A stretch of 60,555 bases of DNA, taken from the IMG/VR virus record IMGVR_UViG_3300010400_000007, one strand, 5' to 3'. Below, one piece after another: positions 124 to 60,555 of this stretch. This DNA comes from a virus. A program made the translations under genes and the position numbers. The notes under the pieces were generated by a model, which made no database searches, was not told the origin of the DNA, and saw nothing but the letters and a program-made list of their open reading frames with translations. Within the stretch, counting starts at the first letter, position 1. Every line of letters starts with the position of its first letter.

Positions 124-983
124 TTCGCTTCGACCAGCGAGACCGCCTTGCCGCGCTCTTCCATCGCGCGGCCCCAGGCGACCGCGCGCCCGGCGTCCTC
201 GCCGTAGGTGTCTCGGTACTGGCCGTCGAACCAGTGCTTCGGGTCCTGCCGGCCACGCGCCTCCTGCGCGCGCCGCTGCGCCTCGTCGAGCTCGCGCTGG
301 AGCTGCTCCTCGCGCGTCTTGTAGGCGGTCCAAACGGCTGGGTCGATCCGCGCCGGATCGGGCTTCGGCGGCAAGTCGCCGCGCGCCGGCGGCGCCAGCC
401 CGAAGCCCTTCTGCACGGTCACCTGGGGCGTGCCCTCAGTGATGCCGCGCTTGGCGGCCTCGCTACGCGTGAGCGAGCGGGGCGACGACCTGCATCGATG
501 GTGCAGCGGCGGCCAGTGCGTGAGCCAGAAGGGGTCCCCCACTGGCTTGACCGTGCCGTTCAGCGACTCGCACAGCTTCGTCGTCCGGCTGTCGAGGATC
601 GCGTCGTACAGCAGGTAAGGCCGGCCGACCGCGAGGTCCGGGTCGGTGAGCTGGTACCAGCGCCCGGTGTTGTAGGCCGTCTGCGTCCAGTTGCGGAAGA
701 CCGTCTCGAGGTGAAAGCCGCTGATCCCGAGCTTGCCCGTCAGCTTCTCGCGGATCGACTTCTTGAAGTCCTCGAGCGAGCTCCCCTTCTCGAGCGCCGC
801 GGCGATCTCGTCGAAGATGGTCTGCACCGCCGAGAGCTCGAGGCTGCCCGCGATCCAGAACGCGGCCGCGCGCGACTTGTCGTCGAGCTCGCCGAGCTCG
901 TCGTGCGTGTAGGCCACGCGGCTTCGGAACCAGCCTACCGCCTCCTCGAAGCGCTCATGGTCGGCTGTGACGTCCCACGACAT
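1..983 (-). CDS. Head morphogenesis protein, MuF/SPP1 gp7 family, N-terminal part (gene continues at 59709..60432 across the junction; 568 aa in total)
   Basis: ATG at 983 (MSWDVTADHERF...) directly after the portal stop. MuF signature FRNWTQTAYNTGRW...LYDAILDSRTTKLCESLNGTV...WPPLHHRCRSS. Frame check: (983-23) is divisible by 3, matching ORF 59709..60455. Confidence 0.85.
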   Translation of the reverse strand, partial: MSWDVTADHERFEEAVGWFRSRVAYTHDELGELDDKSRAAAFWIAGSLELSAVQTIFDEIAAALEKGSSLEDFKKSIREKLTGKLGISGFHLETVFRNWTQTAYNTGRWYQLTDPDLAVGRPYLLYDAILDSRTTKLCESLNGTVKPVGDPFWLTHWPPLHHRCRSSPRSLTRSEAAKRGITEGTPQVTVQKGFGLAPPARGDLPPKPDPARIDPAVWTAYKTREEQLQRELDEAQRRAQEARGRQDPKHWFDGQYRDTYGEDAGRAVAWGRAMEERGKAVSLVEAKRQFVQLTEDIGITTSGNATPLFTRLRQAEADGFVPAGVKT

Positions 984-986
984 GGG

Positions 987-2663
987 TCACGCGTCTTCGC
1001 GCGCGCCCGCGGTGCCGGCGAGGTCGGCGAGGTAGAAGGCGTGCTGCAGGAGCGCGCGCAGCTCTTCGGGCGACTTCATCGCGCCCCAGCGTTCCGTGAC
1101 CGCGTCGCGAATCGCGTCCCAGCTCTTCGCGCCGTTGATGGCGTCGAGCAGCTGCTCGAGCAGCGTGTCTTCGATCTCCTCGCCCGCCGCCGGCTGCGTG
1201 TCTTTGACGACGTCGTCCACGTAGAGCTGGCCGCTGACGAAGCCGCTCGACTTCTCGGCGCGCGCGCCCGAAGCGAGCCGTGCCCGCGCCGCGCGCAGCG
1301 CGCGCGCATTCACCTTGCCGGCAGCGTCGTCCTCGCCAGGCGCGGGATCGCCCCCTGGCGCAGGGTCCGGCTCAGGCTCGGGCTCCTTGAGCTCGCCGAG
1401 GAACGTGAGGCCGAACTCCTCCTTGACCGCCTCGCCGTCGATCTCGAACCCCAGCTTCTGCATCTTGGTGAGCCCGTCGCCGAGCGTGTTCACCATCTGC
1501 GCGCGCTGGTTCTTGTCCTCTTCGGGCTCGACCGGGTACGTCGGCCAGGGCGCGAGGCGCGGGTCGCCGTAGTTGAACTGCGCCCACCACACGAGCGACT
1601 GGTCGTGCAGCGTCGTGCTGATGCTCGACGCGTCGAACCGCAGCTTCGCGTCGTCGCCGGTCTGTTTCTGCGTCTCCGTCGCAGCGCGCGAGCCGTCACC
1701 CTTGCTGATGCTGGTGGTGAGGTTGCCTCCGCGGATGCGCACCGCGATGGCGAGGTCCGCCATCTCGATCTGAGCCTGGTAGATGTCGCGTGTGTTGGCC
1801 TTGACCTCGACCAGGTCCAGTGAGAACCCGTTGGCCAGCGCGACCACTGCGTCCTCCCCGATGGAGGCGAGGTCTTGCGCCAGTTCCTTACGCTGTTTCT
1901 GCGTCGCGTCGTTGGGCGAGGTTGCTACGAGCGTGCCGGCCTTCTCGCCGTGTCGCGCCCAGTCGCTCATCGCGTACTGCTTGAGCAGCACCCAGCGCGC
2001 GAGCGAACGCCAAAGCCCGTGCGCCCACGGGCGCTGTGCACCGTAAGGCGCGTGCAGGATCCATTCGCCATCGCCGGGCACGAGCTCGAGCTCGCGGAGC
2101 TTGTCGTCCTGGATGGTCCAGCGCCGCAGCTGCCAGTCCCACTTGAGCGTTTGCGGGTGCCAGAAGCTCAGGGACGGCAGCACGCGGCCGCCGTGGTCCG
2201 CGCGCACCCGCCAAGGGGCTTGGTTTGCGGGCGCGAGGCCGAGCAAGATGCCCCACGAGAGCACCTGCGTGACCTCGCTCTCCGGGTACGCCTCCCACCA
2301 ATCCTCGCCTGCCTCGAGCGCCTTCACTGCCTGGTTGCGCTTGCGTCCCGCGCCCGGCTCGAAGGTCGGCTGCCGGCCCATCAGCGCCTCGGTGCGCGCG
2401 GACAGAGCGCCCGCTACACGATCGTCGGTCAGCAGCCAATCGCACAGGCTCGCGGCATACATCAAGTAGCCTTGCTCTGCTGTGAGCATGGCTAGCTTGA
2501 TCTTCTTCGGGTCCCAGTCCGCGATGAGCCGTACGCTCGGCGCTACTGCGGCAGCTCGGTCGTCGTCCCGCTCCTCAAAGCGCCTGCGCGGCGGCGGAAC
2601 AAGTGCCAGCTGACGTTTTTCGGCGACCCGCGCCTGGCGCGCGTAGCTGAAGAGCGGGTACAT
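987..2663 (-). CDS. Portal protein (Mu gp29/DUF935-like)
   Basis: 558-aa ORF between TerL and MuF. Size and position are typical of a portal. Acidic, Pro-rich C-terminal tail. Confidence 0.8.
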   Translation of the reverse strand: MYPLFSYARQARVAEKRQLALVPPPRRRFEERDDDRAAAVAPSVRLIADWDPKKIKLAMLTAEQGYLMYAASLCDWLLTDDRVAGALSARTEALMGRQPTFEPGAGRKRNQAVKALEAGEDWWEAYPESEVTQVLSWGILLGLAPANQAPWRVRADHGGRVLPSLSFWHPQTLKWDWQLRRWTIQDDKLRELELVPGDGEWILHAPYGAQRPWAHGLWRSLARWVLLKQYAMSDWARHGEKAGTLVATSPNDATQKQRKELAQDLASIGEDAVVALANGFSLDLVEVKANTRDIYQAQIEMADLAIAVRIRGGNLTTSISKGDGSRAATETQKQTGDDAKLRFDASSISTTLHDQSLVWWAQFNYGDPRLAPWPTYPVEPEEDKNQRAQMVNTLGDGLTKMQKLGFEIDGEAVKEEFGLTFLGELKEPEPEPDPAPGGDPAPGEDDAAGKVNARALRAARARLASGARAEKSSGFVSGQLYVDDVVKDTQPAAGEEIEDTLLEQLLDAINGAKSWDAIRDAVTERWGAMKSPEELRALLQHAFYLADLAGTAGAREDA

Positions 2664-2664
2664 G

Positions 2665-4002
2665 TCAGAGCCGCCTCGTGGATTTCACCCGCACGACACC
2701 GACGCCGTCGACCTCGGGTCCGAGCATGAGTTCGGTCAGCGCCCAGACGAGCGCGTCGAGGCGGTTCGGGCTCCAGGTCGAGACGCCCGGCTCCCACTGG
2801 CACATTTGATCCTCGAGCAAAGGGAACATGCCCACGTGGTGGACGCGCCCCTGCTCGTAGAGACTCGCGATCGGCTCAGCACGTACCGCCTTGCCGCGCG
2901 TTGCCCGCACTTGTTTGAACGAGACGTTCCGATCGATCGACTTGACGTTCGACTCGACGAGGTCGCCACCGTTGTTTACCTCGCCAATGATGCGGTCAGC
3001 CTCGAGCGTGCTGTACAGCGCGATCGCGCCCTTGCCCCACTGCTCCGGCGTGGGCTTGATGATCGACCCATCAGCGAGCACGTATCCGTGCCCATCCTCC
3101 CCGAGCGCGGCCGCCACGATGCCGGTCTCCGCCTCCTCGGCTTCGCTCGAGACCGACGGGTCGACGCCGACGACGATGCGCACGAACTCTGGCGGCTTGT
3201 GGACCCGAAGGTCGTCGATCATCGCCTTGCGCTTCCACAGCGCGCCCGGCGCGTCGTCGAGCACCTCCGCGTCGAGCTCCTGCCGGCCGAGGCGCGTGCC
3301 CTGGTACTTCCGCAGGATGTGGCTCAGCCACTTCGGCGCGACGTTGCCGACGTTCTCGTAGGTGCTGCCCTTGGTGATGCGGCTGAGTGGATCGGCGAGC
3401 AGCTCCTTGATGATCTGCGTCGGGCGCGGCGTCGTCGTGATTATCGCGCGCGGGTTGCGTCCGAGGCGCAGCCCTAGGCAGAGCTGGTCCCAGGCATCCG
3501 GATACCGCCACTTCGCGAGCTCGTCGCACCACGCGCCATCGTGCTGCGGACCGCGCAGCTGGTCAGGCTCATCGGCGCTATAGGTGGTCGCCATCGCGCC
3601 GTTCGGCCAGGTGAGCAGCCGGTTCGAGGGCTGATACTCCGGGCGGAACCACGGCGGCGCGATCGCGAGGATGCCGCTCTCGCCCTTGACCATGACGTCG
3701 CGAGCATCCGCGACCGTCTCTGCCACCAGGGCGATGCGGCCGCACGCGCCGCTCTCTGCCTGCGCCTGGGTCCACTGCGCACCGGTGCGTGTCTTGCCGA
3801 AGCCGCGACCGGCGAGGATCACCCAGAACTGCCAGTCGCCAGGTGGCGTCTGCTGTTTGGGTCGCCCCCAGAACGTCCAGTCGTACTCGAGGGCCTTTGC
3901 CTCCTCCTCGCTCAGCGACTCGAGGAAGCGCGCCTGCTCCGCGGGATCAAGCGCTAGCTGCTCCGCCAGGCTCAGATCCTTCGCGGCGCTTGCGGAGCTC
4001 AT
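2665..4002 (-). CDS. terL: Terminase large subunit
   Basis: Walker A-like VILAGRGFGKTRTG. Walker B/nuclease-type acidic motifs (IVVGVDPS, GDLVE). Lies next to TerS and the portal. Confidence 0.85.
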   Translation of the reverse strand: MSSASAAKDLSLAEQLALDPAEQARFLESLSEEEAKALEYDWTFWGRPKQQTPPGDWQFWVILAGRGFGKTRTGAQWTQAQAESGACGRIALVAETVADARDVMVKGESGILAIAPPWFRPEYQPSNRLLTWPNGAMATTYSADEPDQLRGPQHDGAWCDELAKWRYPDAWDQLCLGLRLGRNPRAIITTTPRPTQIIKELLADPLSRITKGSTYENVGNVAPKWLSHILRKYQGTRLGRQELDAEVLDDAPGALWKRKAMIDDLRVHKPPEFVRIVVGVDPSVSSEAEEAETGIVAAALGEDGHGYVLADGSIIKPTPEQWGKGAIALYSTLEADRIIGEVNNGGDLVESNVKSIDRNVSFKQVRATRGKAVRAEPIASLYEQGRVHHVGMFPLLEDQMCQWEPGVSTWSPNRLDALVWALTELMLGPEVDGVGVVRVKSTRRL

Positions 4003-4513
4003 CCAACTTCCCGGCGAGCGAGGTCTTGGCCGACACCATCTCGACGCTCACGTCGAGCTTCTCCGGAGCCTTCAGCCCGAAGTGGCCCATCAGCAGCTCA
4101 AGCGCCGCCACCTTCGGGTGCAGCTCGACCTGGATCGTCGTCTTGCCGCGCGTGGTCGTCTGCTTCAGCGACTTGATGCAGCGGCGCGCCGCGGGCGTGA
4201 GGTCGTCGAGCCTGCGCACCGTGAAGTAGCGGCCGTCCTTGCTGCTGCTGATCACGTTGCCGATGTCGGAGAGGCCGACGATGCCCAACTCGGCGATCAC
4301 CTGCGCGCCGCTGATCGCCGCGCGCTCCTCCGCTCTCTTTCGAGCCGCTTGGACCGCGTCTTGGATGGCAACATTTGTCAACAGCCGCTGGCCGATGGAG
4401 CGGGCCGTCTTGGCGCTGTAGCCCGCTCGAGCAGCCGCGCGTGTCGCGTTGGAATCCTTGAGGTATTCCAAAACGAATCGCCGCTGTTTATCGCTCAGCT
4501 CGCTACTTCCCAT
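3947..4513 (-). CDS. terS: Terminase small subunit (Terminase_2-like)
   Basis: N-terminus LSDKQRRFVLEYLKDSNATRAAARAGYSAKTARSIGQRLL is the classic TerS HTH. Immediately upstream of terL. Confidence 0.8.
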   Translation of the reverse strand: MGSSELSDKQRRFVLEYLKDSNATRAAARAGYSAKTARSIGQRLLTNVAIQDAVQAARKRAEERAAISGAQVIAELGIVGLSDIGNVISSSKDGRYFTVRRLDDLTPAARRCIKSLKQTTTRGKTTIQVELHPKVAALELLMGHFGLKAPEKLDVSVEMVSAKTSLAGKLDELRKRREGSEPGGAASA

Positions 4514-4532
4514 CGCGCGCCACCTTCGGTCT

Positions 4533-4623
4533 TGGTAGCGGAGGCTGGAGTTGAACCAGCTTCTCGGGGTTATGGGCCCCGCGAGTTTCCCTTTCTCTTC
4601 CCCGCCCTAGCGTTCGCTCCGCA
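4533..4623 (-). ncRNA. tRNA-like element with CAU anticodon loop, T arm, acceptor 3' strand and encoded CCA; the D region is aberrant (non-canonical tRNA or tRNA 3' fragment)
   Basis: Minus strand: stem CGGGG/CCCCG with loop CCCAUAA (4581..4565), T arm GCUGG-UUCAACU-CCAGC, then CUCCGCU-A-CCA ending at 4533. Complementary GCGGAG at 4622..4617. The 35-nt purine tract between them does not fold as a D arm. Confidence 0.45.
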
Positions 4624-4725
4624 TGGAGCGTCTTCGCTTCGTCCGGACCCGACGCGTACATCCCGCCGAGGTCCGCCCCAGCGTAGCCAAAGTCGCACGG
4701 TTTCCCGGCGCGCGACAAGTGGGGC

Positions 4726-4962
4726 TCAGCAGGCTTTTTGCCTGATTTGTCCGCTTTGCCCGATATGTCCACTTGGCGGGCGCCGAATCGGTCTGGTCGC
4801 CGCGCGGAACGCGTCGATGGCCGAGAGCGGGATGCGCCAATGGCCGCCCACGCCTGTGCGGTACGCACCGACCAGCTGCCCCGATTCGCAGAGACGTCCC
4901 ACGGTCTTGCGGTTGAAGCCCAACTCCTCCCCAGCCTGCACCGCGGTCATGATCATCGGCAT
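4726..4962 (-). CDS. Excisionase-family (HTH_17/MerR-like) DNA-binding protein
   Basis: AGEELGFNRKTVGRLCESGQLVGAYRTGVGGHWRIPLSAIDAF matches the excisionase-type HTH pattern. Paralogous to the N-terminus of the next gene. Confidence 0.65.
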   Translation of the reverse strand: MPMIMTAVQAGEELGFNRKTVGRLCESGQLVGAYRTGVGGHWRIPLSAIDAFRAATRPIRRPPSGHIGQSGQIRQKAC

Positions 4963-5420
4963 GATGCACCCCCTCCTACAGCTTCAGAGCACAGCGCCGC
5001 CTTGACGGGTTCCGAGGCGAACCACTCGCCCCGGACCCGGTGCTGCGCGAACCGTTGATGCAGCTGTCGCTCCTCCGCCAAGCCGCCATCGAACACCGCG
5101 ACGAGCTCCACATCGATCGGCAGCATCGTTCTGAGCCCGGCGATTCGTTGCTTGACGTTCGTTGCGGTTCCTATCTTGACGAGCCCGAGCGAGGGCGCCT
5201 CGAGCAGGTAGATGTACGGGCCCTTCACAGGCACCGGCTGATCGGCGACTGGCGGCGCCGGCAGCAGTGCGAGCACTGATGCGCGCGGGATGCGCCAATG
5301 CCTGCCGCCCGTGACGAAGGCATCAGCCAGCACCCCATCGGCGCAGAGGCGTCCGACCGCTCCGCGGGTGACGCCCAGCAGCTTCGCTGCTTCGCCGCTG
5401 CTCAGAACCTCGCTACGCAC
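4953..5420 (-). CDS. HTH_17 domain fused to a T5orf172/GIY-YIG-like domain
   Basis: N-terminus SGEAAKLLGVTRGAVGRLCADGVL...GRHWRIPRASV. C-terminus YIYLLEAP..GLVKIGTATNVKQRIAGL...ERQLHQRFAQHRVRGEWF (T5orf172 pattern). Confidence 0.65.
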   Translation of the reverse strand: MRSEVLSSGEAAKLLGVTRGAVGRLCADGVLADAFVTGGRHWRIPRASVLALLPAPPVADQPVPVKGPYIYLLEAPSLGLVKIGTATNVKQRIAGLRTMLPIDVELVAVFDGGLAEERQLHQRFAQHRVRGEWFASEPVKAALCSEAVGGGASCR

Positions 5421-6262
5421 CCTTCTGCCTCCGGTCGTCGTGCCCAGACACGCGGTGCGGGGATAAGCCCCCGTTCCGCCAGCTCCTCCTCAGCGCGCCG
5501 GCGGCCAGCGCGCACCAGCGCTTGAAGGTCGCCCACCGACACGCCGAAGCGCTCGGCCAGCTCGTCGTAGGCCGGCATGACGGCGACGACGCCGGGCGTC
5601 CGCGCGAGCAGCAGCGCCATGCGCTGGGGCTGGCTCAGGCTCGCGTGCGCGCCCTCGGGATAGGCGAGTTCGAGTGCGAGTCGGACGGCCACGAGTTCGC
5701 CTGCGCGGTGCAGGAGCGGGTCGTCCGGGCGGCTCGCGCCGCCATCGCTGTCGCAGCCGCGCTGCAAACGCGCGATGATGCCGCCGAGCGCACTGGGCCC
5801 GACGCGGTCGTGTCGCTCCCACTCGGCCAGCGCGACCAGCGCGGCCGCGAGGCTGGGCCATCGCGGCGCGTTCTCGGGCTTGCGCAGCTGGTGCTCGCGA
5901 TTGTGCGCGCTGACCTCGCGCGCGCCCCACACGTTCGCTTCGCGCTCCCAGTCGCAGATAACGCACTCGCCGCACTTGCGGTGCTCGCCGCCCTTGCACG
6001 ACCCGGCCCAGAGCGGCGCCGTGAGGCGCGGCGGCGGGTCGGCCTTCGGCGCGAGCACCTTCTTGAGCTCCGCGTCGGTCGCGTCGCGTTCGGCCTTGCG
6101 CCTGCGGGGCGGCATCACCTTGCCCTCACGCTTCAGCCTGCGGCAGACCTTGCACGTCACCTTCGTCAGGTCGGTCTCGGTGTCGACGAACGGCCAGCCG
6201 CACAGTCCGGTGCGACCGACATCGCCCGGCTTGCTCGCGTCGTAGTGCACCGCGCGACTCAT
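5402..6262 (-). CDS. Cys-rich protein with C-terminal sigma-70 region-4-like HTH (candidate late-gene regulator)
   Basis: CxxC clusters (VTCKVCRRL; CKGGEHRKCGECVIC). C-terminus LSQPQRMALLLAR...YDELAERFGVSVGDLQALVRAGRRRAEEEL resembles sigma region 4. Confidence 0.45.
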   Translation of the reverse strand: MSRAVHYDASKPGDVGRTGLCGWPFVDTETDLTKVTCKVCRRLKREGKVMPPRRRKAERDATDAELKKVLAPKADPPPRLTAPLWAGSCKGGEHRKCGECVICDWEREANVWGAREVSAHNREHQLRKPENAPRWPSLAAALVALAEWERHDRVGPSALGGIIARLQRGCDSDGGASRPDDPLLHRAGELVAVRLALELAYPEGAHASLSQPQRMALLLARTPGVVAVMPAYDELAERFGVSVGDLQALVRAGRRRAEEELAERGLIPAPRVWARRPEAEGCVARF

Positions 6263-6726
6263 ACCGACACCACGCTCAGGCGCTTGGCGATCTCAGGCCG
6301 CTCGGCGCACAGCAGCTTGTACTTGAGCTTCCACTCGGGCGTCTCGTGCCCCTTCACTTCGACGAAGCGCACGGAGCCATCCCGCTCGAGGATCATGAAG
6401 TCCACGCGGTAAGTGATGCCCTCCGACAGCTTGATCGGGACCTGCTCGAGCCAATCGGCGATCACGCCCAGTCGCCGCTGGTTGCAAAGCGACGCGGCGA
6501 AGCGCGCCTCGGCCTTGCTGGCGTAGCCGTCCGTGCGCACGGCGTTGAACTTGTTGCGGCCGCGGCGGCGCTTCTTGAGCTCCTGCTCCAGCAGCTCTGC
6601 CGGCGACTGACCAGGCGCGAGCTCGAGCCGCTCCGTGGCAGCGCGCGGGCGCGGCGTTGCGGGCTTGCGGCTCGGCAGCGCGCGCAGCCCACGAAGCACA
6701 GAGCGGTTGATCTCGCTCTCTTTCAC
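6259..6726 (-). CDS. DUF1064-like PD-(D/E)xK nuclease (Holliday-junction resolvase-like)
   Basis: NKFNAVRTDGYASKAEARFAASL...YRVDFMILERDGSVRFVEVKGHETPEWKLKYKLL fits the DUF1064 pattern. ATGA coupling to both neighbours. Confidence 0.6.
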   Translation of the reverse strand: MKESEINRSVLRGLRALPSRKPATPRPRAATERLELAPGQSPAELLEQELKKRRRGRNKFNAVRTDGYASKAEARFAASLCNQRRLGVIADWLEQVPIKLSEGITYRVDFMILERDGSVRFVEVKGHETPEWKLKYKLLCAERPEIAKRLSVVSV

Positions 6727-6923
6727 GACGCGTTACCCTTCGCCTTCTCGCGCATGCGCAGAAACTTGCGGTGCGCATTCGTCAGCGCGCGGTTGCGCAC
6801 GATCACGCTCGCGTCGCGTCCCTCGCGCACGGCATTCAGGAGCGCATCCATCGCCACGACCTCCTCCTCGGTGAACGTCGTCGCCAGGGGGCTGGGGGGG
6901 GGGCGCTTGATTTCGTCGCTCAT
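6723..6923 (-). CDS. Hypothetical protein (66 aa)
   Basis: ATG at 6923 preceded by AGGAGG. High GC3. The upstream part of the tracked ORF is Arg-rich junk. Confidence 0.55.
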   Translation of the reverse strand: MSDEIKRPPPSPLATTFTEEEVVAMDALLNAVREGRDASVIVRNRALTNAHRKFLRMREKAKGNAS

Positions 6924-26244: not shown

Positions 26245-26449
26245 GCCCACCGAGCGTGAGCACGAGCTCGCCCGCGCCCTCGACGCCCGCCAGCAGGAGC
26301 TCGAGCAGCTCGGCCTGACGCTCGATGAGCACACCGAGCGCAACTGCGCGGAGCTCGCCCACGCGCTGGCCGAGCATCGCGAGGAGGTCCTGCGCGGCCT
26401 CGAACAGAAGACTCCCGCGGCCGAGCCCGCGGGCAACGAAGGGGGCTGA
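26237..26449 (+). CDS. Hypothetical coiled-coil protein (70 aa, GTG start)
   Basis: VAEPTEREHELARALDARQQELEQLGLTLDEH... The upstream part of the tracked ORF is Arg-rich overlap. Confidence 0.4.
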   Translation: MAEPTEREHELARALDARQQELEQLGLTLDEHTERNCAELAHALAEHREEVLRGLEQKTPAAEPAGNEGG

Positions 26450-26450
26450 T

Positions 26451-26771
26451 GTGGGAGCGCTCAAAAAGCCGTTGGAGCAGATTCAGCCGAGCAAGCTGAT
26501 CGTGTGCACGCCCGAGGAGCTCCAGGCGCTGGTGCGCGTGGCCGTTCGGGCGGAGATGGGCGACCGGCAGCAAGCCGAAGAGCTGCCCGAGTACATGACC
26601 ACGCAGCAGGTCGCCGACCTGCTCCAGACGAGCACGCGCAACGTGCGCTACATGGTCACGCGCAAGGAGCTGCGCGCGACCCGTCTCGGCGAGCGCGAGT
26701 ACCGCTTCGCGCGCCCCGACGTGCTGGAGTACCTGGATCAGCAGCGCCTGAAAGCAGGCGCGGGCACGTGA
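26451..26771 (+). CDS. xis: Excisionase-like HTH_17 protein; start uncertain
   Basis: MTTQQVADLLQTSTRNVRYMVTRKELRATRLGEREYRFARPDVLEYL. Stop overlaps the integrase GTG. Confidence 0.6.
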   Translation: MGALKKPLEQIQPSKLIVCTPEELQALVRVAVRAEMGDRQQAEELPEYMTTQQVADLLQTSTRNVRYMVTRKELRATRLGEREYRFARPDVLEYLDQQRLKAGAGT

Positions 26772-28036
26772 CCGTCGGCGTCTACGACCGCGCGCTGCCG
26801 GGGCAGCGGCCGAACCTCTACATCCGCTACACGATCACGGAGGAGCTCCGGATCAAGCACGGGCTGACCGCTCGTAAGGTGCGCGAGCCAACGGGGCTCG
26901 GCGACAAGCGCGCCGCAGCGGCTCTGCGCTCGCAGCGCTTGCGCGAGGTGAAGGCGGGCACCTGGCAGCCGCTCGTCGACGGTTCGACGTCGGGCCTGAC
27001 CGTGCGCGCGCGGGCTGCAGAGCACATCGAGAAGCGCAAGGCCGACGGCGTGATCACCGCAGGCGACGAGGACCAGCGCCTGCGGGATTACGTGCTGCCG
27101 GTGATCGGAGACCGGCCGCTCGACAGCGTGCAGCGCCCGGACATCGCCGCGCTGATGGCGAAGGTGCAGCGCGAGCCGTCGAAACACACGGGCGAGCCCC
27201 ACGCGGCGCGCACGATCCACCGCATCTACGAGGCCGTGCGCATCCTCTTCAACGAAGCCGTGCTCGACGGGCTGCTGATCGCATCCCCGTGCACGCTGCG
27301 CATCAAGCGCGGCGAGCTCCCGCCGAAGAGGGACAAGGATCCGAACTGGCGAGCTCGCGCCATCTTCACTCGCGACGAGGTCGAGGTCCTGATCAGCGAC
27401 GAGCGCATCCCCCAGCGCCGGCGCGTGCTCTACGCGCTCGCGTTCCTCGGCGCGATGCGCCTGGGCGAGGTCTCGGGCCGCCGCTGGCAGGACTATGACC
27501 GCTCGTTCCGACCGCTGGGCCGCCTGGTGGTCAGCACGCAGTACGATGACCTGGCGCTCAAGGGCGAGCGCCCCACGCGCAGCGTGCCCGTACACACTGT
27601 GCTCGCCAAGCTGCTCGCGGAGTGGGAGCTCAACGGCTTCGCCCTCAACTTTGGGCGCCGCCCAACGCCTGACGACTTCATCGTGCCCAAGCGCAGCGTC
27701 GGCCGCACGATCGGCTTCACGCCCGGCGCGCAGCGCCAGCAGAACGTGTGGCGCAACCTGCAGATCGACCTCGAGAAGGTCGGCCTGCGGCCGCGGCGCG
27801 TGCACGACACGCGGCGCACCTTCATCACGCTCGCCAAGGCCGACGGCGCGGACAAATACCTGCTTCGGTGGGTCACGCATGGCCCGCCATCTGAAGACGC
27901 CTTCGACGACTACAACTCGCCGCCGTGGGAGACGCTGTGCGAGCAGGTTGCGAAGCTGCGGATTGGGCTGCGCGGCGCCGCGGACGTGGTGCCGATCGGG
28001 CGCAAGAAAGGACGTGACACCCATGCATCGCGATGA
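26768..28036 (+). CDS. int: Tyrosine integrase
   Basis: Catalytic-type residues in LGAMRLGEV (R), VHDTRRTF (HxxR), WVTHG, DDY. The N-terminal region could be an arm-binding domain. Confidence 0.85.
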   Translation: MTVGVYDRALPGQRPNLYIRYTITEELRIKHGLTARKVREPTGLGDKRAAAALRSQRLREVKAGTWQPLVDGSTSGLTVRARAAEHIEKRKADGVITAGDEDQRLRDYVLPVIGDRPLDSVQRPDIAALMAKVQREPSKHTGEPHAARTIHRIYEAVRILFNEAVLDGLLIASPCTLRIKRGELPPKRDKDPNWRARAIFTRDEVEVLISDERIPQRRRVLYALAFLGAMRLGEVSGRRWQDYDRSFRPLGRLVVSTQYDDLALKGERPTRSVPVHTVLAKLLAEWELNGFALNFGRRPTPDDFIVPKRSVGRTIGFTPGAQRQQNVWRNLQIDLEKVGLRPRRVHDTRRTFITLAKADGADKYLLRWVTHGPPSEDAFDDYNSPPWETLCEQVAKLRIGLRGAADVVPIGRKKGRDTHASR

Positions 28037-28262
28037 ACCACCGCGCGAGCCGCCGCCCGATGCATGGCAGCGGATCTGCGACTTCGGCCATCAGCTCTTC
28101 GTGGAGACGCAGCGCCGACACGGAGCCGCGGAGCACATCGTCTCCGCCGGCACGCTCGCAGCCGGCGTGGGCCTCATGAAAGCAACTGGCGCGAGCGAGG
28201 AAGAGGTCGTGCGCATCGCGCGCAAGCTGTACCGCCAGCTCAACTTCCGGCTGGTGTCGTAG
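28023..28262 (+). CDS. Hypothetical protein (79 aa) between int and attP
   Basis: ATG at 28023. MHRDEPPREPPPDAWQRICDFGHQLFVETQ... has realistic composition. Confidence 0.45.
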   Translation: MHRDEPPREPPPDAWQRICDFGHQLFVETQRRHGAAEHIVSAGTLAAGVGLMKATGASEEEVVRIARKLYRQLNFRLVS

Positions 28263-28337
28263 GGGAACGGCGGGGCACAAACCGGGGCACAGCAGCGGAA
28301 CAGGAGCCAGCGAGATGAATGAATCCAACTACTTGCA

Positions 28338-28372
28338 GGTGCCGAGGGCGGGACTCGAACCCGCCAACCATG
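28338..28372 (-). other. attP core candidate: 3' fragment of a tRNA gene (T arm plus acceptor 3' strand)
   Basis: Minus strand reads GGCGGGTTCGAGTCCCGCC-CTCGGC-A-CC. No matching 5' acceptor or anticodon arm upstream. About 300 bp downstream of int. Confidence 0.55.
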
Positions 28373-59712: not shown

Positions 59713-60555
59713 TTCACGGACTCTCCCGCGAGCTGCCCGAGGGCAAACCAGAACGCTTCCTCGTCTTTGTCTACCAAATTCGCGGTGTTCTGGTGGAGCT
59801 CCTCGAGCGCCATGGAAGAAACCTCCGTGGCGAAGCGCGTGCCCATGCGGTCCAAGTAATCCTTGCCCATGTAAGGATTGAAGAAACGGTCCCGCTTGGC
59901 GATTTCGTCAGCCCGATAACCATTGTTCCCGGTCAGCTCGCGCATGGTGAGTGCGACCTCGCCTGCGGTGCGCTGCTTCAGGAACGCTTCGGCCGCGCGC
60001 CGGGCCCGGTCGTTGTGCTGCTCGAGGCCGTGCGCCATCTCGTGCACCAGGGTCGAGTGCCCGTCGTCGAGCAGCTGGCCGAGGCGCGTGATCCAGTGGG
60101 TCCAAACGACGCGCGCCGCGGGGTCGTAGTAGGCGCGCGAGTTCGCCCACTTGATCACGTAGCCGCGGCGCCGGTCGGGCAGCACCAGCGACGCGTCCGA
60201 CAGCTCAGCCCAGAACGCACGCACCTTGCGGACGATCTCGCCCGCCGTCTTTCTCAGCTGCAGCGGCGCACCCGGTCCCACGGCCGGAGTCGCCAAGCTC
60301 ACTGCCTGCCCGGTCGGCCGGATGCCGGCGCGGTGCCCGATCAGGCCGGCCAGCGCGCGCACCTCGTCGAGCGTGCCCTTGAGCGAGGGCGTCTTGTCGA
60401 GCGCGCCCGTGAGCGCGTCCGCGACCTCGCCCAGGGTCTTGACGCCGGCGGGCACGAAGCCGTCGGCCTCGGCCTGGCGCAGGCGCGTGAACAGCGGCGT
60501 CGCATTGCCGCTGGTGGTGATCCCGATGTCCTCAGTCAGCTGAACGAACTGGCGC
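59709..60555 (-). CDS. C-terminal part of the MuF-family protein: HExxH (zincin-like) domain; continuous with 1..983
   Basis: The tracked M at 60455 is an internal GTG (..DGFVPAGVKTL..). STLVHEMAHGLEQHND at 60030..60044, followed by a helical region with conserved-looking E/D residues. Confidence 0.75.
   Translation of the reverse strand, partial: RQFVQLTEDIGITTSGNATPLFTRLRQAEADGFVPAGVKTLGEVADALTGALDKTPSLKGTLDEVRALAGLIGHRAGIRPTGQAVSLATPAVGPGAPLQLRKTAGEIVRKVRAFWAELSDASLVLPDRRRGYVIKWANSRAYYDPAARVVWTHWITRLGQLLDDGHSTLVHEMAHGLEQHNDRARRAAEAFLKQRTAGEVALTMRELTGNNGYRADEIAKRDRFFNPYMGKDYLDRMGTRFATEVSSMALEELHQNTANLVDKDEEAFWFALGQLAGESVK
60433..60555. repeat. Terminal direct repeat, copy 2 (identical to 1..123)
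   Basis: Same 123-nt string as the window start. Consistent with an assembly overlap of a circular molecule or a short DTR. Confidence 0.95.

Follow-up and report, generated by a model that had tools for sequence, protein, structure and literature searches.

A full-length initiator-type tRNA gene with C33 ahead of the terminase genes of a temperate phage

The IMG/VR virus record IMGVR_UViG_3300010400_000007 is a DNA stretch of 60,555 nt, which was analysed over its whole length and is referred to below as the window. On its minus strand, at 4606..4533, Rfam and ARAGORN identified a full-length transfer RNA (tRNA) gene of 74 nt with a CAU anticodon and an encoded CCA. The gene is homologous to known tRNAs, has a complete cloverleaf and the hallmarks of bacterial initiator tRNA, and is not a phage attachment (att) site; by its sequence it falls, as a divergent member, into a class of initiator-type tRNAs with a cytidine at position 33 (C33) that is widespread in phages. 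We think it probable that 4606..4533 is a genuine and functional phage-encoded gene of the bacterial initiator type (tRNA-fMet). In kind it is known phage cargo, namely a tRNA gene carried by a temperate phage ahead of its DNA-packaging genes.

Results

A complete tRNA gene upstream of terS

The RNA encoded by 4606..4533 (minus strand) reads, segment by segment, GGCGGGG AA GAGA AAGGGAA ACUC G CGGGG CCCAUAA CCCCG AGAA GCUGG UUCAACU CCAGC CUCCGCU A CCA, and its parts are the following.

4533..4606, minus strand: complete tRNA gene, initiator type (RF00005 with 49.7 bits; ARAGORN at 95%, identical ends)
4600..4606, minus strand: acceptor 5' strand GGCGGGG (positions 1-7), pairing with 4543..4537 (cmscan alignment, ARAGORN drawing)
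4583..4599, minus strand: A8 A9 and D arm with stem GAG(A)/(A)CUC and loop AAGGGAA containing G18 G19 (cmscan, ARAGORN)
4565..4581, minus strand: anticodon arm CGGGG-CCCAUAA-CCCCG with C33, and CAU at 4574..4572 (sequence)
4561..4564, minus strand: 4-nt variable loop AGAA, with position 47 absent and A48 (cmscan alignment)
4544..4560, minus strand: T arm GCUGG-UUCAACU-CCAGC (sequence, cmscan)
4533..4543, minus strand: acceptor 3' strand CUCCGCU, discriminator A73 and encoded CCA (sequence, cmscan)

The Rfam tRNA model (RF00005) aligned untruncated (model 1-71 of 71) onto 4606..4536 with 49.7 bits (E = 1.2e-7 for the 60.5-kb window), exceeding the gathering score of 29 by 20 bits, and this was the sole Rfam match that cmscan returned anywhere in the window. 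With the same model the 3' portion alone (4582..4536) reached 28.1 bits, and the 5' third adds about 21.6 bits. ARAGORN reported zero tRNAs over the window at default settings, while at a 95% threshold it called a tRNA-Met(cat) of 74 nt at exactly 4606..4533. A first-pass annotation, made from the letters of the window alone, had suggested both a relaxed ARAGORN run and a covariance-model comparison with Rfam, and both returned a tRNA, the latter with a score well above background. The default miss is explained by A8, A15/A48, A13.A22 and C33 together with the 4-nt variable loop, which bring the gene just below the threshold; a single reversion to U of A8, A22 or C33 restored the default call in each case.

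The helices of the cloverleaf are intact in the acceptor (7/7; G1.U72, G2:C71, C3:G70, G4:C69, G5:C68, G6.U67 and G7:C66, with two G.U wobbles), anticodon (5/5) and T arms (5/5), and the D stem is paired at three of its four positions (G10:C25, A11:U24 and G12:C23, with A13.A22 open) and followed by G26. The nucleotides U8, A14, R15:Y48, G18 G19, A21, U33, G53:C61 and U54..A58 were treated as conserved in tRNAs and not as defining them; A14, G18 G19, A21, G53:C61 and U54/A58 are retained here. A shifted reading of the anticodon and an alternative acceptor register were rejected on pairing.

For the 3' part of the gene, the first-pass annotation was borne out: the stem CGGGG/CCCCG with the loop CCCAUAA, the CAU anticodon and C33 are all found on the minus strand, as are, within 4581..4533, the 4-nt variable region AGAA, the T arm GCUGG-UUCAACU-CCAGC, the 7-nt acceptor 3' strand, the A and the CCA. 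Its 5' part had to be redrawn. The element had been given as 4533-4623, with a 35-nt purine tract thought unable to form a D arm; that stretch supplies A8 A9 as well as the D arm, the acceptor 5' strand is found at 4606..4600, and the true gene is 4533..4606. The sequence GCGGAG, proposed as the acceptor 5' strand, does occur at 4622..4617 but forms the 3' arm of the hairpin CGCUCC-AUGC-GGAGCG in a separate element. The idea of a non-canonical phage tRNA-Met-like RNA thus survives in its assignment to the Met or initiator type and not in its aberrant drawing, as the cloverleaf is of normal length.

Initiator identity

Next to the CAU anticodon, the gene carries G29:C41, G30:C40 and G31:C39 (the G-C run beside the anticodon loop that had already been recognised as initiator-like), A11:U24, G2:C71, C3:G70, A73 and, at 1:72, the wobble G1.U72, a pair that is not Watson-Crick but also not the canonical C1xA72 mismatch. 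The pairs A11:U24, G2:C71 and C3:G70 and the nucleotide A73 are determinants of formylation. A mismatch at 1:72 and three G:C pairs are the elements for formylation, exclusion from the ribosome's A site and binding to the P site (PMC11231383). The tRNA-fMet of Escherichia coli shares with the gene in the window the CAU anticodon, the three G:C pairs, A11:U24, G2:C71, C3:G70 and A73 (PMC11231383), as well as a weak or missing 1:72 pair and a T loop of the UUCAA type. It differs in U33, C1xA72, U8, G15:C48 and a 5-nt variable loop, in being a cellular gene and in its Rfam score (57-61 bits compared to 49.7).

The cytoplasmic initiator tRNAs of multicellular eukaryotes also have C33 in place of the near-universal U33, and this state is hence compatible with initiator function (PMC8887486). 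They belong to a different domain of life and have a different identity set, and a common descent of C33 is unsupported. In the E. coli initiator tRNA, the change U33C blocked the formation of N6-threonylcarbamoyladenosine at position 37 (t6A37) by TsaBCDE in vitro (PMC8887486).

A class of phage initiator-type tRNAs with C33

The C33 class was defined operationally, by the anticodon arm GGGCCCAUAACCC in a viral genome together with initiator hallmarks. A pattern scan found this arm, which the gene in the window has, in at least 120 viral contigs (loci L003-L122), and nearly all of the matches listed are tRNA-Met genes that ARAGORN can call. When either C or U was allowed at position 33, the 120 matches listed comprised 108 with U33 (L234-L341) and 12 with C33, i.e. 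C33 accounts for roughly 10% of the initiator-type arms in that collection. Family counts refer to the 80 unique C33 sequences that could be parsed among the matches listed. None of these 80 has G:C or C:G at 1:72 (U/U in 24, A/C in 10, C/U in 8, and others), and most share U8 (78), G15:C48 (76), A73 (76), G2:C71 (74), C3:G70 (74), A11:U24 (66) and C13:G22 (66). An alignment of the window's sequence with 39 members gave a cloverleaf in RNAalifold, in which 14 of 20 pairs show compensatory changes and 1:72 does not pair. Host-like C1xA72 ends were seen in 7/80 sequences of the C33 set and in 24/79 of the U33 set, and U1xU72 in 24/80 of the C33 set. The C33 gene is the sole tRNA gene in 81 of 120 loci among the matches listed.

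At 86-87% identity, the most frequent C33 sequence resembles tRNA-Met genes of E. coli whose median copy number per genome is four, with a tandem of three next to amiC; we regard these as metZWV and metY, the initiator genes. Matches of 90% or more to this C33 sequence were absent from the E. coli genomes. The C33 class is therefore a phage-borne relative of the canonical initiator tRNA. The E. coli initiator genes score 57-61 bits with the Rfam model and the phage C33 tRNA-Met genes 40-61 bits, which places the 49.7 bits of the window's gene in the middle of the range. Members are spread over many genomic contexts, including tRNA arrays, and we found no description of the class in the literature searched on C33 and on phage initiator tRNAs.

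In one otherwise unrelated viral contig (L106), a C33 tRNA gene at 6067..6140 precedes a terS gene (6245..6742; 33% identical) by about 100 nt, so that placement at the head of a packaging operon recurs. This terS was also the single, weak match when eight proteins of the window were compared to all C33 loci by tblastn.

Relatives in cultured phages

Among cultured phages, BLAST matched the annotated tRNA-Met genes of the Pseudomonas phages D3, BUCT566, phPA-G and Haboob (83-85% identical over the 3' two-thirds) and one tRNA-Met gene in Janthinobacterium phage Donnerlittchen. The D3 group (Detrevirus) and Donnerlittchen share with the window the CCCAUAA loop with C33, the three G:C pairs, A11:U24, a 1:72 combination other than Watson-Crick, A73 and CCA, and the D3 group and the window also have the D-stem 5' strand GAGA in common. 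In contrast to the gene in the window, these genes have U8, A13:U22, G15:C48 and a 5-nt variable loop and are called by ARAGORN at default settings; overall identity is only about 80%. The position differs as well, as the tRNA gene of the D3 group follows ninG, beside a tRNA cluster and lysis genes, whereas that of the window stands directly before terS.

Compared to the BUCT566 gene, double compensatory changes were found at 4:69 (G:C versus A:U) and 28:42 (G:C versus C:G) and single changes that preserve a wobble pair at 5:68 and 6:67, and only 13:22 is opened. These structure-preserving differences, seen in one pairwise comparison, would favour continued selection on the fold over free decay.

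Genome context and a conserved leader-like element

Bases 1-123 of the window are identical to bases 60433-60555, which indicates a circularly closed genome of about 60.4 kb. The window was also recovered as a Logan assembly contig (run SRR6185295) and has a G+C content of about 69%. The features around the tRNA gene are listed below.

4726..4962, minus strand: HTH_17 gene upstream of the gap (Pfam HTH_17)
4953..5420, minus strand: second HTH gene, HTH_17 fused to T5orf172/MUG113 (GIY-YIG-like) (Pfam)
4607..4711, minus strand: non-coding two-hairpin element of 105 nt directly 5' of G1, separate from the tRNA (conserved in L233 and L230)
3947..4513, minus strand: terS, small terminase (Pfam Terminase_2, E = 1e-30)
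2665..4002, minus strand: TerL, the gene after terS on the minus strand

The order on the minus strand is HTH_17, gap, terS, TerL and a Mu-type portal gene, which agrees with the earlier placement of the element in the gap upstream of terS; the Terminase_2 gene (4513..3947) and the two HTH_17 genes flank that gap. The gap of 212 nt between the HTH_17 gene and terS holds the leader-like element and the tRNA gene, both on the same strand as their neighbours, and an independent gene caller run on the Logan contig placed no gene in it. The start codon of terS follows 19 nt past the CCA of the tRNA, with the Shine-Dalgarno-like GAAGGUGG (4527..4520) in between. The fusion gene and the start of the HTH_17 gene that follows it share 10 nt.

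The simplest inference from this layout is that the tRNA would be co-transcribed with the packaging operon. The tRNA genes of the E. coli operon thrU-tyrU-glyT-thrT-tufB are co-transcribed with an mRNA, and as in the window they stand just upstream of a protein gene on the same strand, with no promoter or terminator in between; co-transcription is known there and inferred here.

Over 100 nt, the copy of the leader-like element in a metagenome contig (L233) shows 99% identity, and over 75 nt that in a Logan contig (L230) shows 93%. The flanking proteins have diverged more: for terS the identity in L230 is 60%, and for HTH_17 an estimate by eye in L233 gives about 45%. The element forms two hairpins, GGACCUCGGCG...CGUCGGGUCC and AGCG..CGCUCC-AUGC-GGAGCG..CGCU, and the differences between its copies, including indels of 1-2 nt, are confined to the hairpin loops. 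It had no match in Rfam and none in the scan of viral contigs, and the metagenome scan gave a single contig, L233. In both L230 and L233 the element abuts the first downstream gene with no tRNA between, and the similarity to the window stops precisely at the start of the tRNA gene. The tRNA is therefore lineage-specific, most simply through insertion between the element and the ribosome-binding site of terS. The same layout of HTH_17, gap and terS, with no tRNA, was found in the terS relatives among viral contigs and in the three closest database homologues of terS (L230, L231 and L232).

Our guesses at its role are a leader for the late (packaging) operon, which seems probable, or else a site where a protein binds. 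Short A-rich repeats lie upstream of it in the window (4712..4765, minus strand), in L233 (about 395..450, minus strand) and in L230 (about 4835..4890), with the units CGTAAGAA and CGCAAGAAA in L230 and L233 and GCAAAG, GACAAAT and GGCAAAAAG in the window. These repeats could be protein-binding or DNA-bending sites.

A search of bacterial genomes with TerL returned closest relatives of 47-56% identity that are prophage-like or similar to gene transfer agents, nearly all in Alphaproteobacteria and a few in Betaproteobacteria. A homologue of the integrase (44%) was found in a Myxococcales metagenome-assembled genome, as opposed to the alphaproteobacterial relatives of TerL. On these sequence comparisons the genome looks mosaic.

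The probable integration module

The genes and site related to integration lie 22 kb from the tRNA-Met gene.

26325..26771, plus strand: HTH_17 open reading frame directly upstream of the integrase, likely excisionase (HTH_17)
26504..28036, plus strand: tyrosine integrase (phrog_1, E = 2e-28)
28333..28362, minus strand: likely attP core, a bare tRNA-Leu-type 3' fragment (T arm and acceptor 3' strand, no 5' part)

The attP candidate (GCGGG-UUCGAGU-CCCGC CCUCGGC A CC) is non-coding and lies about 300 nt downstream of the integrase; its core sequence is GGGTTCGAGTCCCGCCCTCGGCAC. At 26 of 27 nt it agrees with the 3' end of a tRNA-Leu(GAG) gene from Paraburkholderia, and a related phage-sized contig (L347; integrase 68% identical) has an identical 24-nt core downstream of its integrase with divergent flanks. 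A more distant integrase homologue, on a contig of 440 kb, abuts tRNA-Ser genes on the opposite strand. From this arrangement, 26325..28362 is likely a xis-int-attP module. The integrase reading frame as listed has 510 amino acids and its homologues about 400-420, so it is probably too long and starts later.

The two HTH genes beside the tRNA had been described as excisionase-type. They are indeed HTH_17 neighbours of the gene; a third HTH_17 gene, the one beside the integrase, is the likelier excisionase, and therefore the two are probably not excisionases.

In tRNA-dependent lysogeny, the whole tRNA gene of a phage replaces a host gene that is disrupted by integration (PMC10865867). The window resembles such phages in being temperate, in having a tRNA gene as its target and in carrying a complete tRNA gene elsewhere in the genome. 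This explanation was rejected: the att-like fragment is of Leu type, matching tRNA-Leu(GAG), and the complete gene is Met(CAU), and with different isotypes the complete tRNA cannot complement the integration target.

Alternative explanations

Several observations weigh against a working tRNA. In the conserved core, U8 is replaced by A, 15:48 is A/A and U33 is C, and some of these states are rare even among the 80 C33 sequences (A8 in 1/80, A13.A22 in 2/80 and A15/A48 in 1/80), as is G1.U72 (1/80), which is a weak wobble pair and not the canonical C1xA72 mismatch. The tRNA of the window is a singleton, with its nearest sequences identical at 59 of 74 positions; the GAGA..ACUC D arm had zero matches in the scan of viral contigs; and the minimum-energy fold lacks the D arm, with a z-score of only -1.4. 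A scan around the gene found neither a sigma-70-type promoter nor an intrinsic terminator, and this locus lacks a tRNA in L230, L231, L232 and L233, the nearest phages by terS or by the leader element. The unusual core nucleotides make the functional status uncertain, and an initiator-type phage tRNA that entered the stretch from the leader element to terS and has since been drifting, still tRNA-like in appearance but out of use, would account for several of these points: the departures at U8, G15:C48, 13:22 and U33, all near-invariant among family members, the score below the default threshold of ARAGORN, the missing tRNA at all four related loci, and a D arm that is unique as a variant and weak in the thermodynamic fold. 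Such decay sits less well with all 17 acceptor, anticodon and T-stem pairs being intact at about 20% divergence from the nearest relatives, with two compensatory double changes and two wobble-preserving ones, with the retention of all initiator identity elements and the encoded CCA, and with an Rfam score inside the range of accepted phage tRNAs. Two loci (L014 and L020) that share purine 8, A22 and a nucleotide other than C at 48 add a hint that a variant core is tolerated. We consider decay possible, and on balance improbable. If the gene served instead only as a tRNA-shaped processing signal, cleavage by RNase P or RNase Z would free the leader RNA from the terS mRNA or set the 5' end of that mRNA, with no role in translation. 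The cloverleaf sits exactly between the leader (4711..4607) and the Shine-Dalgarno sequence of terS, 6 nt past the CCA, and RNase P, for which the acceptor and T arms matter most, might still accept a core with A8 and A15/A48. However, the relatives that share the leader do without a tRNA, the wider class is found in many contexts including tRNA arrays, and CAU, the three G:C pairs, A11:U24 and A73 would be unneeded for processing and yet are kept, so that we regard this explanation as unlikely.

The remaining alternatives concern identity and origin. The CAU anticodon is common to initiator tRNA, elongator tRNA-Met and the tRNA-Ile2 in which C34 is converted to lysidine, and G1.U72 is still a pair of sorts. 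The three consecutive G:C pairs beside the loop, like A11:U24, G2:C71 and C3:G70, mark an initiator (PMC11231383), the C33 consensus is 86-87% identical to the clustered E. coli tRNA-Met genes that we assumed to be initiator genes, and a strong 1:72 pair occurs in 0/80 sequences of the C33 family; an elongator or Ile2 tRNA is thus very improbable, and an Ile2 identity in particular appears unlikely from the hallmarks. Still less probable is the earlier suggestion of a 3' fragment, i.e. a fossil or second att site whose 3' part copies the end of a host tRNA gene used in past or present integration. The phage is temperate, its integrase belongs to a family that targets tRNA genes, and HTH_17 genes adjoin the element. 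Cores of attP sites do copy host tRNA 3' ends, and the window has one likely site of this kind at 28362..28333, of Leu type and beside the integrase. Unlike such a core, 4606..4533 is a whole gene, with a 5' third worth 21.6 bits, at a distance of 22 kb from the integrase; the Leu-type fragment about 300 nt past the integrase, with its 24-nt core kept in L347, is the attP that would be expected, the likelier Xis is the third HTH_17 gene, which adjoins the integrase, and U72 and C33 would not be expected from a canonical host initiator gene. On these features of the window, the att reading was therefore rejected.

Three loci bear a resemblance to the core of the window's tRNA: L014 (2580..2651), L020 (4813..4885) and L087 have a purine at 8, A22 opposite a purine at 13, at 48 a nucleotide other than C, and CU or UU as the last letters of the T loop. 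The resemblance hints, weakly, at a variant tRNA core in which this combination is tolerated. L014 has a second weak tRNA-like match at 2087..2153 (30.4 bits). The combination of a 4-nt variable loop with the C33 anticodon arm was found in only two viral contigs, both unrelated, in the viral scan.

Discussion

If the gene is a functional initiator-type tRNA, which is the explanation that we prefer, it would be transcribed within the late or packaging operon transcript and excised by host RNase P and 3'-end processing enzymes, with the CCA already encoded. Host methionyl-tRNA synthetase would charge it through the CAU anticodon and A73, and the attached methionine would be formylated because 1:72 is not Watson-Crick and G2:C71, C3:G70 and A11:U24 are present. 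The three G:C pairs would then steer the tRNA to the ribosomal P site, where it may supplement or replace the host initiator tRNA during the synthesis of structural proteins.

An initiator tRNA as cargo is not explicable by compensation of codon usage. Its position at the start of the packaging and structural operon fits better the idea that phages resupply tRNAs which their hosts deplete or cleave (PMC10264068). According to a published proposal, changes in the anticodon loop let phage tRNAs evade the tRNA nucleases of the host, among them VapC, for which initiator tRNA is a target (PMC10264068). Nuclease evasion may thus be why these tRNAs have C33, which is otherwise known from the initiators of multicellular eukaryotes. 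More speculatively, the C33 phage initiators may form a distinct, selected class that escapes host enzymes (VapC-type nucleases and the t6A machinery), with the window's gene as a functional, remodelled variant timed with the late operon; we hold this broader proposal as tentative and rather doubtful.

The default settings of a standard tool missed this gene through three deviations that are individually tolerable, and counts of phage tRNAs made with a single tool will therefore be underestimates. The case also shows how a carried tRNA gene and an att site are told apart within one genome. Of more interest, as leads, are the C33 tRNAs considered as a class and the conserved element upstream of the gene. 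Should the broader proposal on C33 hold, the C33 loop would keep phage translation initiation going under host shutdown, and a tRNA at the head of the late operon would be made exactly when the structural proteins are needed.

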